Positions 26,326-30,692 of a DNA stretch of 64,000 nt are shown piece by piece (positions within the stretch are counted from its first letter, which is position 1; each line of letters opens with the position of its first letter). Origin of the DNA: Roseibacillus sp. (GTDB lineage Bacteria; Verrucomicrobiota; Verrucomicrobiia; Verrucomicrobiales; Akkermansiaceae). Under the pieces are notes generated by a model. The model made no database searches, was not told the DNA's origin, and saw only the letters and a list, made by a program, of their open reading frames with translations. The position numbers were made by a program, and so were the translations under genes. The stretch lies in assembly GCA_051251855.1 (NCBI GenBank), contig JBPOGI010000007.1, positions 128,001-192,000 on the forward strand, read 5' to 3'.

Positions 26326-27600
26326 ATGGCCAGCTTTCACATTCATACCGGAGCTCAGCTCTCCCGCCGTCACTTCTTGCGCAACGTCGGCATCGTCATG
26401 GGCCTCCCCTTGCTTGACGCAATGACGCCCGCCTTCGCTGCCGCACCAACCCGCGCACCCAAACGATTTGTCGGCATCAGCCTCTCCTTAGGCCTCCACT
26501 CCCCCAACCTCGTTCCCAAAGACGCCGGCCGCGATTACACCCCCTCCCGTTATCTGCGCTCGGTCCAAGACCTACGCGATCAATTCACCGTCATCTCCGG
26601 CACCTCCCACCCCGGAGTCGGCGGAGGACACCGGGCCGAATCCTCCATCTTCACCGCTTGCCCAAACAAAGGCAGCGGCAGCCGCAATACCATCTCCTTG
26701 GACCAATTGATGGCGAAACACCTCGGACACGAGACCCGCTTCCCCTCCCTCACCCTCAATACCGGCGAACAAAAGAGCCCCTCCTACACCGAGAACGGCT
26801 CCATGATCCCCGCCATCGACGACCCCCGCCAACTCTTTGCGCAACTCTTCATCGACGACAAACCAGCAGTCCGCCGACGTCAGACCGAACTCCTGCGAGG
26901 AGGAAAAAGCATTATGGATATCGTCGGAGCTGAGGCCAAAGCGCTCCAACGCGAAGTCGGAGCTGGGGACCGCGATAAACTCGACTCCTGGTTCACCAGC
27001 GTGCGAGAGCTGGAACAACGCCTCGAAATGAACAAAGCTTGGGTCGAAAAGCCCAAACCCAAAGTCAAAGGCCAACCCCGCACCCCAGACAACAACAACG
27101 CTGCCGACATCAAACGTGCTATGCTCGACACCATTGCCATGGCTCTCCAAACCGACTCCACCCGCTTCATCACCCTCCATTGCACCACCAACGGCGTGCG
27201 TAGCATCGAGGGTGTCGACGAAAGCTACCACGGCCTCAGTCACCACGGTCTCGACGAGGAAAAGCTGACCCAACTCACCTTGGTCGAACAAGCCATGATC
27301 AACTCTTGGGGTAACTTCCTTCGTCAACTTAAAGACAGCGAGTCTAATGGACGCACCCTGTTAGACGACACCATGGTCATCCTCACCTCCAACCTCGGCA
27401 ACGCTTCCTCTCATGACAACCGCAACATGCCTGTCCTCTTCGCGGGAGGAGAATTTGTCCACGGCCAGCACCTCGCCTTCGACCAAAAGGACAATTACCC
27501 CCTCCCCAATCTCTACCTCAGCGCCCTCAATTCGATTGGCATCATGCAGGACAATTTCGCCACCAGCACCGGCGCCATGAAAGGCCTACAGATGACTTAG
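26326..27600 (+). CDS. DUF1552 family protein (Tat-like signal)
   Basis: LSRRHFLR..GLPLLDAM, ISLDQLMA, YHGLSHH; usual partner of DUF1592. Confidence 0.9.
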   Translation: MASFHIHTGAQLSRRHFLRNVGIVMGLPLLDAMTPAFAAAPTRAPKRFVGISLSLGLHSPNLVPKDAGRDYTPSRYLRSVQDLRDQFTVISGTSHPGVGGGHRAESSIFTACPNKGSGSRNTISLDQLMAKHLGHETRFPSLTLNTGEQKSPSYTENGSMIPAIDDPRQLFAQLFIDDKPAVRRRQTELLRGGKSIMDIVGAEAKALQREVGAGDRDKLDSWFTSVRELEQRLEMNKAWVEKPKPKVKGQPRTPDNNNAADIKRAMLDTIAMALQTDSTRFITLHCTTNGVRSIEGVDESYHGLSHHGLDEEKLTQLTLVEQAMINSWGNFLRQLKDSESNGRTLLDDTMVILTSNLGNASSHDNRNMPVLFAGGEFVHGQHLAFDQKDNYPLPNLYLSALNSIGIMQDNFATSTGAMKGLQMT

Positions 27601-27686
27601 CTCCCCGATAGGAGGGTCGACTTTCGTCGAATGACAACGCCCCAAACTCTTTCCTACAACTTGCTTTCACCACCAAGCCGGAGAAC

Positions 27687-27714
27687 AAAAAAGACCGACT
27701 GTTTCCAGTCGGCC
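27687..27714 (-). terminator. Rho-independent terminator after the read-through ORF
   Basis: Minus strand GGCCGACTG-GAAA-CAGTCGGTC-TTTTTT, 26 nt beyond the stop at 27741. Confidence 0.8.
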
Positions 27715-27740
27715 TTCTCAAAAAATAACAAGTCGAAGGT

Positions 27741-28439
27741 TCAACCCTTTTTTAAGATTTCAGGGAGCTTCTTGTCGCTATAGTGCGTCTTCACGACCTT
27801 TTCATCGACAACAATTTCAACCTTCGCTCCAATCAGCTCATCTGCACGGCGACCGCCGGGCGTTACTGGACCGCCTCCTCATCCGCCACCCGATTTGGAT
27901 GTCGAAACCCGTTCCAAACTCACCGTGCTACTGAAGCCTTCGGAGCGTTTCTTTGGATAAATGGTGTAGAGGTCAAGGGAACCCGTTTTCTCGGTAATCT
28001 TCCCCTTGCCCGAATTCGTACCCTTGCGATAATAAATCGTATAATTCGCGGTGACATCTTCCATTACCTCACCCGAACCGTTCAGCACATTAATCGTGTA
28101 TCCCGTAGGAGTGACTGCGCTTCGCATCGTGTCCGAACGAGTGGACTGTCGCTCGCCCTCAAACTCTTTCAGTTGAACCGTGGTCGCGCTTGCCGCAGCA
28201 AGAACCACTCCGTTTTCGCGAATATACGTTTGGTCTTCCTCACAAAGGAGAGAGACCTTAAACTTCACCTCTGAACCATTGTCACGCAGGACCGTAACGG
28301 TATCAGACTTGGAACTATAGCCAATCGCCTCACCGACGAACGACTTGGACTTATCCGCGCTATGGAAGGTCCGCTCCTCAAGGGCAGACGCCGGTAGCAC
28401 CGCCAAAAGGCAGAGGGGTATGAGACGTTTCATTTTCAT
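27741..28439 (-). CDS. Secreted SHD1-like-domain protein, candidate selenoprotein (in-frame UGA at 27881-27879; 232 aa if read through)
   Basis: Signal peptide; ...SKSGGG-UGA-GGGPVTPGGRRADELIGAKVEIVVDEKVVKTHYSDKKLPEILKKG-stop. The frame stays open for 45 codons after UGA up to the terminator. 186 aa if UGA is a true stop. Confidence 0.7.
27844..27861 (-). promoter_or_regulatory. Candidate bacterial SECIS hairpin
   Basis: GC-C-CGGC-[GGUC]-GCCG-U-GC; upper stem begins 20 nt and the loop 24 nt after the UGA. Confidence 0.55.
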
Positions 28440-28572
28440 ATTCCCTCCTACATTAGGACCAAAATCCTAGAAAACGAGGCAAAAATCGCCTCCACCTCCC
28501 TGTCTGCGACAGCATTTCCAACGCATCGTGGGCTTGCCCAAAGCGAAAAAAAGCCTTATCGCACGCGCAACA

Positions 28573-29172
28573 ATGTCTTTACCCGCTATTTCCCAAGTCG
28601 CCGGCACCGCCGTTCCTGTTCTCGGTAACGATATCGACACCGACCGTATCATCCCTGCCCGCTTCATGAAGTGCGTCACTTTCGACGACCTCGCCGAAGG
28701 CATGTTCTACGACGTGAAAAACAATCCCGAGACCGGCGAGAAAACCGACCACCCCCTCAACGACAGCAAATTCGAGGGAGCTTCTATCCTTCTTTCAAAC
28801 TCCAACTTCGGCTGCGGTTCCTCTCGCGAGCACGCCCCTCAGTCCATCTACCGCTCCGGCTACCGCGCTGTCATCGCCGAGTCCTTTGCCGAAATTTTCT
28901 TCGGAAACTCCACTACCTTGGGAATGCCCTGCGTTTGCGCCAGCCACGCAGACATCACCGCCCTTTCGGACTTTGTCACCAAAGCTCCCGAAACACGTAT
29001 CACCATCGATATCGACACCCTCAAGGTCCACTACGCTGACATTTCATTCCCCATCACCCTTCCCAATTCCGCTCGCAGCGCCCTCACCACCGCGAAGTAC
29101 GACCCCTTGGCTGAACTTCTCGAGAACAACGAAGCCATCGAAAAGACCGCCGACGGCCTCGCTTACGTTTAG
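28573..29172 (+). CDS. leuD: 3-isopropylmalate dehydratase small subunit
   Basis: NDIDTDRIIPARF, NFGCGSSREHAP, SFAEIFFGN; leuC is not adjacent. Confidence 0.96.
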   Translation: MSLPAISQVAGTAVPVLGNDIDTDRIIPARFMKCVTFDDLAEGMFYDVKNNPETGEKTDHPLNDSKFEGASILLSNSNFGCGSSREHAPQSIYRSGYRAVIAESFAEIFFGNSTTLGMPCVCASHADITALSDFVTKAPETRITIDIDTLKVHYADISFPITLPNSARSALTTAKYDPLAELLENNEAIEKTADGLAYV

Positions 29173-29187
29173 TCCGACTTCGATCCG

Positions 29188-30579
29188 CTATTTCTTCTGC
29201 AAGCGCCCGCCCGTTCTTCGGCCCGGGCCTATTTTCTTTTGGAAATCATCGCCCAAGTCAGCCCGCATCTCCTCGGCCAGCCTCTGCATGCTCGCCAAGA
29301 TCGCCGGATGCTGATCAATCACGTTTTCGGTCTCCCCGATATCCTCATCCACGTTGTAGAGTTCCAAATCCGACTTGGGCCACAAGTAGGTCCCTCGCAT
29401 GCCATCCTGCCCCGGCTCACTGCGTTCATCGCGCCATTTGTGGGGAAAAATCAGCTTCCATGGCCCCATTCGCATCGCTTCCAAATTGTTGCGGCCATAA
29501 TAGAAAAAGTAAGCCTCCTGCACTGGCCCCTCCACCGCTCCCGAGAGCATGGGCCAAGCATCCTCTCCATCAATCGCGTGCTCTGGCAAAGGAACCTCGA
29601 GTAACCCCGCGATGGTTGGCAACAAGTCTATCGTCATCCAAAGCTCATTCCTCACTAAACCTGCCTCAAATTGAGCTGGCCAACGCATCACACAAGGCAC
29701 CCTCACCCCGCCTTCCCAACTCGTACCCTTGCTTCCCCGTAAAGGCCCCACCAAGCCGCCATGATTCCCATAGGTCATCCACGGCCCGTTATCACTCGTG
29801 AAAATCACCCAAGTATTCTCCGACAACTTGAGCTCATCCAACGTCTTCAAAATTTCCCCCGTGGACCAATCAATTTCTTGCATCACATCTCCATACAAAC
29901 CGTTGGACGAACTCCCCGCCCGTTCCGGCGACACATAAAGTGGCACGTGCGGCTGGGGATGAGCTAAATAGAGAAAGAAGGGACGCTCCTGGTTCTCCCG
30001 AATGAATCGCACCGAACGCTCCGTCAGCCACTTCGTCATATAGGTCTGGTCCTCCACCGTCACAATCACCTCATCGTCTTCAATCAAAGGAAGACGAGGC
30101 CATTTGGGTTTCATTTCAACCGGTCCACTCGGCCACATGTCATTGGAATAGGGATAACCAAAGTAATCATCGAAACCATGATGTACCGGCAAGAACTGCG
30201 GATAATGCCCCAGGTGCCACTTCCCAAAAGCCGCCGTCGCATAACCCGCCTGCTGGCACACCTCCCCCAGAGTTACTTCGTCTTCATGAATGCCATTCTT
30301 GCTCCCAGGCCCCAGCGCCCCCGCGATATCGATTCGGTTAGCATAACACCCCGTCAAAAGCGCCGCCCGCGAAGCAGAACAAACCGCTTGCGCCACATGA
30401 AAATCGGTAAACCGAATCCCCTCCTCCGCCAGCCGATCAATATTTGGCGTCGCCCACCCCTCCGCCCCCTGACAACTCAAGTCCCCATAGCCTAAATCAT
30501 CACAATAGATGAGCACGATATTTGGCCTCTCAGCGAGGATCGGAAGAACCAGAGCAAACAAGAGAATCAAAACTTTCAT
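29188..30579 (-). CDS. Formylglycine-dependent sulfatase (S1, arylsulfatase A-like)
   Basis: RPNIVLIYCDDLGYGD, CSASRAALLTG, GKWHLG, FTSDNG; signal peptide. Confidence 0.95.
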   Translation of the reverse strand: MKVLILLFALVLPILAERPNIVLIYCDDLGYGDLSCQGAEGWATPNIDRLAEEGIRFTDFHVAQAVCSASRAALLTGCYANRIDIAGALGPGSKNGIHEDEVTLGEVCQQAGYATAAFGKWHLGHYPQFLPVHHGFDDYFGYPYSNDMWPSGPVEMKPKWPRLPLIEDDEVIVTVEDQTYMTKWLTERSVRFIRENQERPFFLYLAHPQPHVPLYVSPERAGSSSNGLYGDVMQEIDWSTGEILKTLDELKLSENTWVIFTSDNGPWMTYGNHGGLVGPLRGSKGTSWEGGVRVPCVMRWPAQFEAGLVRNELWMTIDLLPTIAGLLEVPLPEHAIDGEDAWPMLSGAVEGPVQEAYFFYYGRNNLEAMRMGPWKLIFPHKWRDERSEPGQDGMRGTYLWPKSDLELYNVDEDIGETENVIDQHPAILASMQRLAEEMRADLGDDFQKKIGPGRRTGGRLQKK

Positions 30580-30692
30580 GACAACTTGTAACCCAGACTC
30601 AGCAAGTAAAGGAAGCACTCAGAGCCCATTGAACCAGAGCCATTCATGCAATTCGCGTCCTAGGTCATACAACTGAAGCAGAAGTTCCTATT

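Follow-up and report, generated by a model that had tools for sequence, protein, structure and literature searches.

A 64,000-nucleotide (nt) stretch of Roseibacillus sp. DNA (assembly GCA_051251855.1, contig JBPOGI010000007.1, positions 128,001 to 192,000, hereafter referred to as the window) carries on its minus strand a small gene which, judging from sequence comparison, is very probably a genuine selenoprotein gene. Its UGA codon 187 would be recoded as selenocysteine (Sec) by the canonical system, in which SelB acts on a selenocysteine insertion sequence (SECIS) hairpin. As far as could be checked, the gene appears to represent a new and sizeable selenoprotein family, using an established kind of decoding. 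Positions given below are those of the window, and the features of the gene and its surroundings are collected in Table 1.

On the basis of the sequence and its translation, the open reading frame (ORF) 28439..27879 counts 186 codons and is closed by a TGA lying in a run of glycine (Gly) codons (GGT GGC GGA TGA GGA GGC GGT, peptide SKSGGG-UGA-GGG). Past this codon, the frame stays open for 45 further codons, GGGPVTPGGRRADELIGAKVEIVVDEKVVKTHYSDKKLPEILKKG, up to a second TGA. The initial annotation of the window, which was made from the sequence alone, had described this ending in a Gly run and this continuation to position 27741 exactly as they are found. It had also placed the terminator 26 nt after the stop, which agrees with a stem beginning at 27714 (a terminator scan places the hairpin at 27710..27693), and a hairpin with its loop 24 nt after the UGA, which is indeed present, with one internal C.U mismatch.

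Conservation and range of the UGA-containing family

Codon comparisons indicate that the post-UGA extension is under purifying selection. When compared with a 78%-identical orthologue, its 45 codons comprise 23 identical, 16 synonymous, and 6 non-synonymous ones, and the nucleotide differences are distributed as 6/1/21 over the three codon positions. The first 186 codons of the same pair comprise 61 identical, 81 synonymous, and 44 non-synonymous codons. Past the second stop, the 3' flanks of the window and the orthologue diverge, the terminator hairpin being the sole conserved part. The closest orthologue ends with TAG instead. An independent macroalgae metagenome, issued from a different study, provides a contig (X5) that spans 27669-28031, and keeps the internal TGA while TAA replaces the terminal one; seven further differences are listed for it, all of which are synonymous and affect third positions, with three falling in the extension. 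The depth of X5 is low (3.5), and it is therefore taken as a single supporting observation; in two other runs, X6 and X7, the UGA falls outside the covered region. As the terminal stop can be TGA, TAG, or TAA, the stop codon type varies while the internal TGA does not.

The read-through product was searched against 61 related genomes, and 19 full-length rows were translated and inspected; in the remaining rows, among them two partial matches of genome G043 and one of G054, the match is limited to the first 75-170 residues. In 10 of the 61 genomes, the match is full-length and contains an in-frame TGA, identities ranging between 78% and 29%. Separate translation added G018 and G034, in which the TGA is located just beyond the reported match. 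A thirteenth TGA locus (L057) was obtained from a scan of named genomes, for which a search with a single protein yielded no relative, while a four-row alignment query did retrieve relatives. The 13 UGA loci are spread over at least 12 genomes of several families, and all family TGAs share one column of the Gly-rich loop in an alignment of 18 sequences.

The residues surrounding this column vary. The loop motif is GGGUGGG in the window copy, L026, and L027, and GGGUGGA in L057; G/A-C-U-G is found in L029, L030, and L031, UC in L032, L033, L036, and L037, and C-x4-U in L039, while L035 contains two UGAs. In the latter (genome G042), the two in-frame TGAs are 6 codons apart (VGURSSGGURSS), apparently due to an 18-nt duplication, and a single GGUUC hairpin follows, at a distance of 18 nt from the second TGA and 36 nt from the first. 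This gene could be a two-Sec form served by one SECIS, or else an assembly error (the G042 assembly is 83% complete, in 670 contigs).

Full-length members devoid of TGA occur in six genomes, and five of these genes carry cysteine (Cys) at or around the Sec column (L028, L034, L038, L040, and L046). The patterns at this column are CC, CxxC, or CxC, and the motifs are DDCC (G004), CSTC, CPKC (twice), and CKPECNHC. The Cys orthologue of G004, a genome of the same genus as that of the window, occupies the same slot adjoining leuD. Cys is absent from the loop in a tandem paralogue of G023 and in the G046 gene. The initial annotation had allowed that the extension might not be conserved, or that homologues might carry Gly at a position where the UGA would be unique to this strain. 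Neither is the case, since the 45 codons are kept at the protein level in homologues, the aligned residue is Cys, and the TGA recurs in 12 genomes. The lone Sec, with no CxxU motif, which had also been described, is a correct description of the window copy and its closest relatives only. Other members contain CU, UC, U-x4-C, or C-x4-U, and a chalcogen pair is therefore the commoner state.

A tree was built with FastTree from the 160 columns preceding the loop and 163 rows, six long or poorly covered representatives being dropped. Three Sec rows and the Cys orthologue form the window's clade, with a support of 98. Loop types are clustered on the tree (a value as low was reached in none of 500 shuffles), yet Sec and Cys forms interleave, and, even when only well-supported branches are considered, the Sec label must have changed at least 13 times; for database rows, this label is an inferred one.

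At a larger scale, a profile search of 1.84 billion cluster representatives returned 5,518 matches at E<=1e-3 and 76 at E<=1e-30; many of the weak matches are probably SHD1-like domains only. Loop classes were counted in the best 150 of the 5,518 representatives. The C-terminal segment is present in 81 of them (28 with at least two loop Cys, 2 with one, and 51 with none), the Cys-free full-length forms having an aromatic 'GYYW.DG'-type loop instead. It is missing in the other 69, of which 47 end exactly in the loop, and 22 are fragments or unclear. The tails of these 47 (...SGGG, ...AGC, or ...QCTGGG) are the signature of a UGA-truncated gene call. In a named protein collection, all ten close homologues (63-100% identity) are 'hypothetical proteins' of 184-186 amino acids, ending at the UGA. 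The closest named relative, with 78% identity, is issued from a metagenome-assembled genome (MAG) of an 'uncultured Roseibacillus sp.', and the others are from Akkermansiaceae, Verrucomicrobiales, and Verrucomicrobiia MAGs. The locus is also present in seawater metagenomes, and none of the sequencing runs listed for it is an RNA run. In an even sample of the phylum, family members are found in 20 of 201 genomes at E<=1e-12, and the 11 loci translated from this sample are Cys-free aromatic-loop forms. The scaffold is thus widespread in the phylum, while the Sec form is narrow and concentrated in the window's order.

Decoding signals and alternative readings of the UGA

The genome from which the window originates (13 contigs, 95% complete) contains tRNA-Sec, selA, selB, and selD; a lack of Sec machinery was one of the outcomes by which the initial annotation would have been refuted. 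The tRNA-Sec scores 63.9 bits, with the anticodon tca according to ARAGORN, and SelB, SelA, and SelD are detected with 331, 456, and 376 bits, respectively, all above the curated cut-offs; selD contains its own in-frame Sec-TGA. Among the related genomes, selA is found in 12/12 of those with the UGA form and in 30/61 overall, versus 1/6 of those with only Cys or other full-length forms (G004, of the same genus). As related genomes are not independent, this co-occurrence is a consistency check rather than a statistic.

The second element is the hairpin following the codon. In the window, 27861..27855 is paired with 27850..27844, the C.U mismatch being located at 27859/27846, and the loop lies 24 nt past the A of the UGA. 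A perfect stem of 6-8 base pairs (bp), capped with GGUC, GGUCA, or GGUUC, is found in 11 of the 13 Sec-form genes, 17-24 nt after the UGA and with energies of -10.4 to -15.6 kcal/mol, while no such hairpin exists at the equivalent place in any of seven Cys or other forms. Throughout the genome, a GGUY-capped hairpin of at least 6 bp is found at +21..+28 after 140 of 175,662 TGA trinucleotides (0.08%), to be compared with 11 of the 13 family UGAs examined, and a chance occurrence is therefore excluded. The stem sequences vary by lineage (ggc/gcc, gcc/ggc, cuac/gug, gugc/gcgc). In a gapless alignment, 76.6% of the stem cells pair, and 9 are changed on both sides, versus 3.4 in shuffles, a value that was reached in 0/500 of these; both the pairing and covariation figures are depressed because two loop registers (4 and 5 nt) coexist. 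According to published criteria, bacterial SECIS (bSECIS) elements have a loop of 3-9 nt with G in the first two loop positions, an upper stem of at least 4 bp, a spacing of 16-37 nt, and a minimum free energy of -7.5 kcal/mol or lower (PMC13188914, Fig. 2 legend). The window hairpin falls within all four (loop GGUC, 4 bp, 24 nt, -9.3 kcal/mol).

The same type of signal serves other genes of this genome. The Sec codon of selD is followed by acgca-GGUCU-ugcgu, and that of fdhA (SRAUHAPT) by a 7-bp GGUY hairpin. A crude genome-wide scan for TGA plus GGUY hairpin returned 191 candidates, mostly noise, and misses the window's own site because of the stem mismatch. In Escherichia coli, the apical loop of the fdhF SECIS is GGUC. 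The window gene shares with canonical Sec decoding, such as that of fdhF and selD, the in-frame UGA, a hairpin within the coding region, a GG-U loop of 4 nt, and the 24-nt spacing, and no mechanistic difference is apparent, except that the hairpin is here laid over conserved P-G-G-R-R codons. Its loop and 3' stem read GGC GGU CGC CG(N), encoding G-G-R-R. The Cys-free relatives L058 and L059 keep PGGRRKD by means of ggg ggt agg agg, with no hairpin there, so that this peptide belongs to the protein in its own right and carries the RNA signal as an additional layer. Within the SECIS, the same 12 nt are thus constrained at both the RNA and the protein level.

The following scheme can be proposed. 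During translation, SelB, together with Sec-tRNA(Sec), would bind the GGUC-capped hairpin downstream of UGA-187, selenocysteine would be inserted in place of termination, and 45 more codons would be read up to the terminal stop. The product would be an exported protein of 232 residues, or about 213 after removal of the signal peptide. Under selenium scarcity, translation would end at the UGA, and the resulting product of 186 residues, without the last three strands of its beta-sandwich, would probably be non-functional.

Several observations weigh against this scheme. Of all the SECIS hairpins of the family, that of the window is the weakest, its upper stem being of 4 bp, followed by the C.U mismatch and 2 further pairs. 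L039, a Sec form, has no GGUY hairpin, just a borderline one of -7.3 kcal/mol. An Rfam scan of 27650-27950, at E up to 10, detected no SECIS family, and its three matches are chance ones, driven by the terminator, with E of about 1 or more. Among the 20 genomes of the phylum sample that contain family members, the TGA form is restricted to the window's own genome, and the Sec label of the 47 truncated representatives was deduced from their Gly/Cys-rich C-termini, not from DNA.

Two other readings of the codon are both very improbable. According to the first, the UGA would be an ordinary stop, giving a 186-residue product, and the downstream 135 nt would be untranslated. Translation table 11 and the public calls agree with this, including the 184-186 amino acids of 10/10 close homologues, and TGA is a normal stop in this genome; nevertheless, the protein conservation of the next 45 codons (to 29% identity), their third-position bias, the full-length Cys homologues, the selA co-occurrence, and the three strands encoded by the extension would all be left unexplained. 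According to the second, which is just as improbable, the UGA would be read through, but not as Sec, because of a reassigned code (tryptophan (Trp) or Gly) or near-cognate suppression. The GGA TGA GGA context does suggest Gly, and UGA-to-Trp reassignment is reported for some Verrucomicrobiota in the abstract of PMC13462651. However, TGA closes 462 of the 2,036 long ORFs of the window genome (23%), as well as the gene in question; it is a common ordinary stop here, and the codon is therefore not reassigned. Furthermore, the residue aligned in stop-free homologues is Cys, never Trp or Gly, the codon is followed by a SelB-type hairpin, and the UGA form is found only in genomes with selA (12/12). 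A single G>T in the Gly-codon run would suffice to create the TGA, but the possibility that it stems from a recent nonsense mutation (GGA>TGA), pseudogenisation, or faulty assembly is refuted by its presence in 13 loci from at least 12 genomes of several families and in X5, and conflicts with the apparent purifying selection on the frame beyond it.

Novelty, architecture and possible function

Searches at E of 0.1 or 1 assign the window protein to no Pfam or NCBIfam family, and no relevant family of these two libraries is found among 18 members (SHD1 being sub-threshold in three), while the positive control, with the same NCBIfam library and genome, gave NF041383 at 314.8 bits. A 2026 inventory lists 119 prokaryotic selenoprotein families, each with a domain identifier (PMC13188914, Table 1), and none of them fits the window protein. 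Five of these, defined only by CDD or PANTHER identifiers (cd02966, cd02970, cd10141, cd01144, and PTHR43551), were set apart by their table names alone, i.e., as thioredoxin-like, ferredoxin-like, BtuF, or Fe-S proteins, unlike the window fold (PMC13188914). The families of Haft and Tolstoy (2025) were compared only through the NCBIfam identifiers of the PMC13188914 table. GOS_A, the only older family devoid of a model, and GOS_B are unrelated by sequence (PMC2398784, supplementary file 4). The literature consulted contains no link between SHD1, Verrucomicrobia, Akkermansiaceae, or Roseibacillus and such a selenoprotein family, and the available parts of the deep-Sep (PMC12013277) and BSepDB (PMC13326102) articles mention neither the phylum nor SHD1. 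The 'new selenoprotein family' proposed initially thus stands, as far as it is checkable, against Pfam and NCBIfam, the 119 families, and GOS_A and GOS_B.

The protein is probably exported, judging from its N-terminal signal; an equivalent hydrophobic N-terminus is present in all 18 aligned homologues, and residues 1-16 have a predicted local distance difference test (pLDDT) score below 50 in the AlphaFold2 (AF2) model. This model, built on the 18-row alignment (mean pLDDT 85.9, predicted template modelling score 0.76), is all-beta, plus two short helices, residues 22-61 forming a barrel and 86-220 a beta-sandwich. The extension encodes the last three strands (197-199, 201-211, and 214-220) and the terminal helix, with pLDDT means of 90-96 for the 10-residue blocks over residues 201-230. 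The model thus agrees with the initial suggestion that the extension completes the preceding beta-rich domain. The Sec-bearing, Gly-flanked loop (residues 185-191), placed between the third-last and second-last strands, has a pLDDT below 50.

Structural comparisons were carried out with VIA-align on a set of 48,161 chains. Residues 20-79 resemble the SHD1 domain of Sla1 (2hbp), with Z 8.3 and a root-mean-square deviation of 2.0 A over 58 of 66 residues. A weak profile match to 2hbp is also obtained (E=0.043), with no significant sequence relative in the Protein Data Bank. Pfam SHD1 (PF03983) has no match in the window protein and is sub-threshold in 3 of 18 members (best E=0.0049). Protein-atlas clusters related to the Cys orthologue P0004 are annotated as 'hypothetical protein' from Verrucomicrobiota, with SHD1 in 15-28% of their members. 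The N-terminal domain can thus be termed 'SHD1-like', rather than a proven SHD1 member. Residues 84-222 match the immunoglobulin (Ig)-like domains of GH2 proteins (Z 10-11), the oxidised E. coli CsgC (2y2y, Z 9.3, 95/95 residues aligned), Amuc_1102 of Akkermansia (7dsz, Z 8.6), and ApaG (Z 7.8), in agreement with Foldseek, which returns sandwiches of the arrestin/ApaG type. In terms of the modelled structure, these matches are fold-level resemblances only.

Thioredoxin-fold selenoproteins, with UxxC or CxxU motifs, make up the bulk of the 119 catalogued prokaryotic families (PMC13188914). The window family shares with them the Sec/Cys interchange at one site, the export of many members, and the pairing of Sec with Cys in relatives. 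However, its scaffold is an Ig-like sandwich with an SHD1-like domain, and Sec is located in a disordered poly-Gly loop, not at the N-terminus of a helix. With an all-beta model, no thioredoxin family match, and the motif GGGUGGG, the protein is, as had been claimed, unlike thioredoxin-fold selenoproteins. Redox-active Cys pairs do exist on Ig folds, in CsgC (CxC) and in the N-terminal domain of DsbD (nDsbD). These share with the window protein an exported Ig-like sandwich, but no sequence relationship, and lack the SHD1-like domain and the long Gly-rich loop. The CsgC likeness is one of fold only, Z values of the 9.3 type being common among unrelated sandwiches.

Another point of comparison is the animal thioredoxin reductase, which has a C-terminal Gly-Cys-Sec-Gly redox arm. 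L029, L030, and L031 likewise carry G/A-C-U-G on a flexible segment, and a vicinal selenenylsulfide on a mobile arm would be the working principle proposed here. In the present family, however, the segment lies internally, as a loop of a small exported bacterial protein that has no flavin domain, and the GGGUGGG of the window copy is devoid of Cys. DUF1573, finally, is a beta-sandwich domain common in bacteria of the Planctomycetes-Verrucomicrobia-Chlamydiae (PVC) type and in Bacteroidota. DUF1573 (PF07610) 'UGC' and the 'Hypothetical protein DG' (GUxG) are poorly characterised selenoproteins with Gly beside Sec (PMC13188914, Table 1), and neither PF07610 nor NF049953 has a match in the window protein or in any of the 18 aligned members.

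Sec (or the Cys-Sec, Sec-Cys, and CxxC of relatives) would provide a flexible arm of the cell envelope with a reactive chalcogen centre. Its activity may, tentatively, consist in thiol/selenol-disulfide exchange, the SHD1-like adaptor domain possibly serving to dock the partner. The roles suggested in the initial annotation (metal binding, redox sensing, or covalent cross-linking) are conjectural. Three observations argue against this functional assignment: the window copy has no partner Cys near Sec, no conserved partner is found among 131 flanking frames from 17 loci, and the fold matches, to generic Ig-like sandwiches with Z 8-11, are devoid of functional information.

Somewhat unlikely, although worth considering, is the binding of a soft metal or a metalloid (such as Cu(I), Hg, Zn, or As) by the Gly-rich Sec/Cys loop, in a periplasmic chaperone or scavenger. 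The motifs of relatives (CU, UC, CC, CxxC, and GGGCxGGGC) are also typical of metal sites, several CU-motif selenoproteins (MbdU, SaoC, SaoL, and HgcA) are associated with metals or organometals (PMC13188914, Table 1), and a lone selenolate could, from its flexible loop, share the coordination of a metal with a second molecule. Nevertheless, no metal-transport or resistance genes are found nearby in any of the 17 loci, no His, Met, or Asp ligands are conserved around the loop in the 18-sequence alignment, and 51 of the 81 full-length relatives have no loop Cys at all, so that the scaffold does not need a metal. The redox-exchange arm is thus favoured over the soft-metal site, although neither the neighbourhood nor the fold decides between them.

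A more speculative reading, which is rather improbable, would be that of a swinging selenol arm in a new type of envelope protein. The SHD1-like domain would dock on a partner or on a structure of the cell surface, and the lone Sec would then form an intermolecular selenenylsulfide or diselenide, acting as a catalytic shuttle or as a reversible covalent tether or cross-link. If true, such a tethering Sec would be a structural use of Sec outside the cytoplasm, without precedent among bacterial selenoproteins.

Gene context, other candidates and significance

Table 1. Coordinates of the putative selenoprotein gene, its elements and its neighbours in the window.
Feature	Position	Strand	Basis or remark
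Complete gene, predicted selenoprotein	27741..28439	minus	232 codons, Sec = codon 187, plus stop
Shine-Dalgarno-like motif AGGAGGG	28449..28443	minus	upstream of start
Predicted signal peptide, residues 1-19 (MKMKRLIPLCLLAVLPASA then LEE)	28383..28439	minus	n-h-c pattern with AxA
SHD1-like small beta-barrel, residues 20-79	28203..28382	minus	VIA-align to 2hbp
Ig-like beta-sandwich, residues 84-222	27774..28190	minus	AF2, VIA-align, Foldseek
UGA codon 187, predicted to be read as Sec	27879..27881	minus	disordered Gly-rich loop GGG-U-GGG
Post-UGA coding extension, residues 188-232	27744..27878	minus	45 codons
Predicted bacterial SECIS hairpin gcccggc-GGUC-gccgugc	27844..27861	minus	loop GGUC 27854..27851, -9.3 kcal/mol
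True stop codon TGA	27741..27743	minus	sequence and translation
Intrinsic terminator ggccgacug-gaaa-cagucgguc, then T-run	27687..27714	minus	sequence reading and terminator scan
DUF1552 (HXXSHH) protein	26326-27600	plus	neighbour
LeuD-like aconitase C-terminal domain protein	28528-29172	plus	neighbour
Sulfatase	29188-30618	minus	neighbour

Translation can start at M1 (28439) or M3 (28433), and the public gene call, of 184 amino acids, is compatible with the latter. In the region preceding the gene, a promoter scan detected no sigma-70-type site. A terminator-like hairpin with a T-rich tail is found on the minus strand at 28476-28498, about 40 nt before the gene start. It is either a possible 5'-leader structure or a chance match, the scan having given 2 sites versus 1.4 expected; there is no minus-strand gene directly upstream of it, as leuD is on the plus strand. 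The adjacency to leuD is confined to the genus, and a sulfatase is found nearby in two loci of sulfatase-rich genomes. The neighbours are of kinds usual in PVC-type genomes, and no link between any of them and the selenoprotein extends across genera. Paralogues of 130-180 amino acids, matching the N-terminal SHD1-like domain only (residues 1-90), are numerous (for example, C11:42056-42313 and C1:1583739-1583990 of the window's genome, G000, both outside the window), and these genomes make wide use of the domain as a module.

Other selenoprotein candidates are located in the same genome, outside the window. The crude GGUY-hairpin scan pointed to a protein of about 1,286 amino acids (L082, C6:418951-422808), with a tandem copy at C6:423042-426857 and a shorter one at C6:415996-417720. 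Proteins of this type combine FG-GAP_3, UnbV_ASPIC, AhpC-TSA, and TPR domains, and their single in-frame TGA (TPDTGDLUSVYWRQ) has a GGUY-capped hairpin downstream, at +21. They have matches at E<=1e-30 in 10 of 41 related genomes; among the 46 matches listed, in-frame TGAs (one or two) occur in 37, at identities as low as 32%, while 8 have none and 1 has a TAA. As their Pfam identifiers are absent from the 119-family table (PMC13188914), they may constitute a second uncatalogued selenoprotein family. Adjoining selA, C1:1811910-1812782 (L084) encodes a known selenoprotein, the VPGUxxT thioredoxin-like (seleno)protein type 2 (NF041383, 314.8 bits for a cut-off of 275, motif VPGUGPC). On the minus strand of C10 (234048-234560, L083), an exported Redoxin/TlpA-like protein of 171 amino acids, with WGGUGGC (UxxC) and a GGUY hairpin, is probably a member of a known thioredoxin-fold selenoprotein family, its model matches being weak.

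The gene described here would add a well-supported family to the bacterial selenoproteins, from a phylum barely represented among them, and in an unusual setting, as the scaffold is exported, is Ig-like/SHD1-like rather than a thioredoxin fold, and bears Sec on a disordered poly-Gly loop. As its close homologues are all annotated about 45 residues short, annotation pipelines and selenoproteome surveys miss the family, which is not small, since about a third of the best 150 representatives (47) look like UGA-truncated calls. The GGUC-capped SECIS common to selD, fdhA, and the window gene offers a lineage-specific search model. Should the tethering role of Sec be true, the family would, along with the FG-GAP/ASPIC proteins, point to a large unexplored extracytoplasmic selenoproteome in marine Verrucomicrobia. 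Finally, the series formed by Sec, Cys-Sec, CxxC, and Cys-free loops, with its repeated switches, constitutes a system in which to address why Sec is used over Cys in an oxidising envelope.

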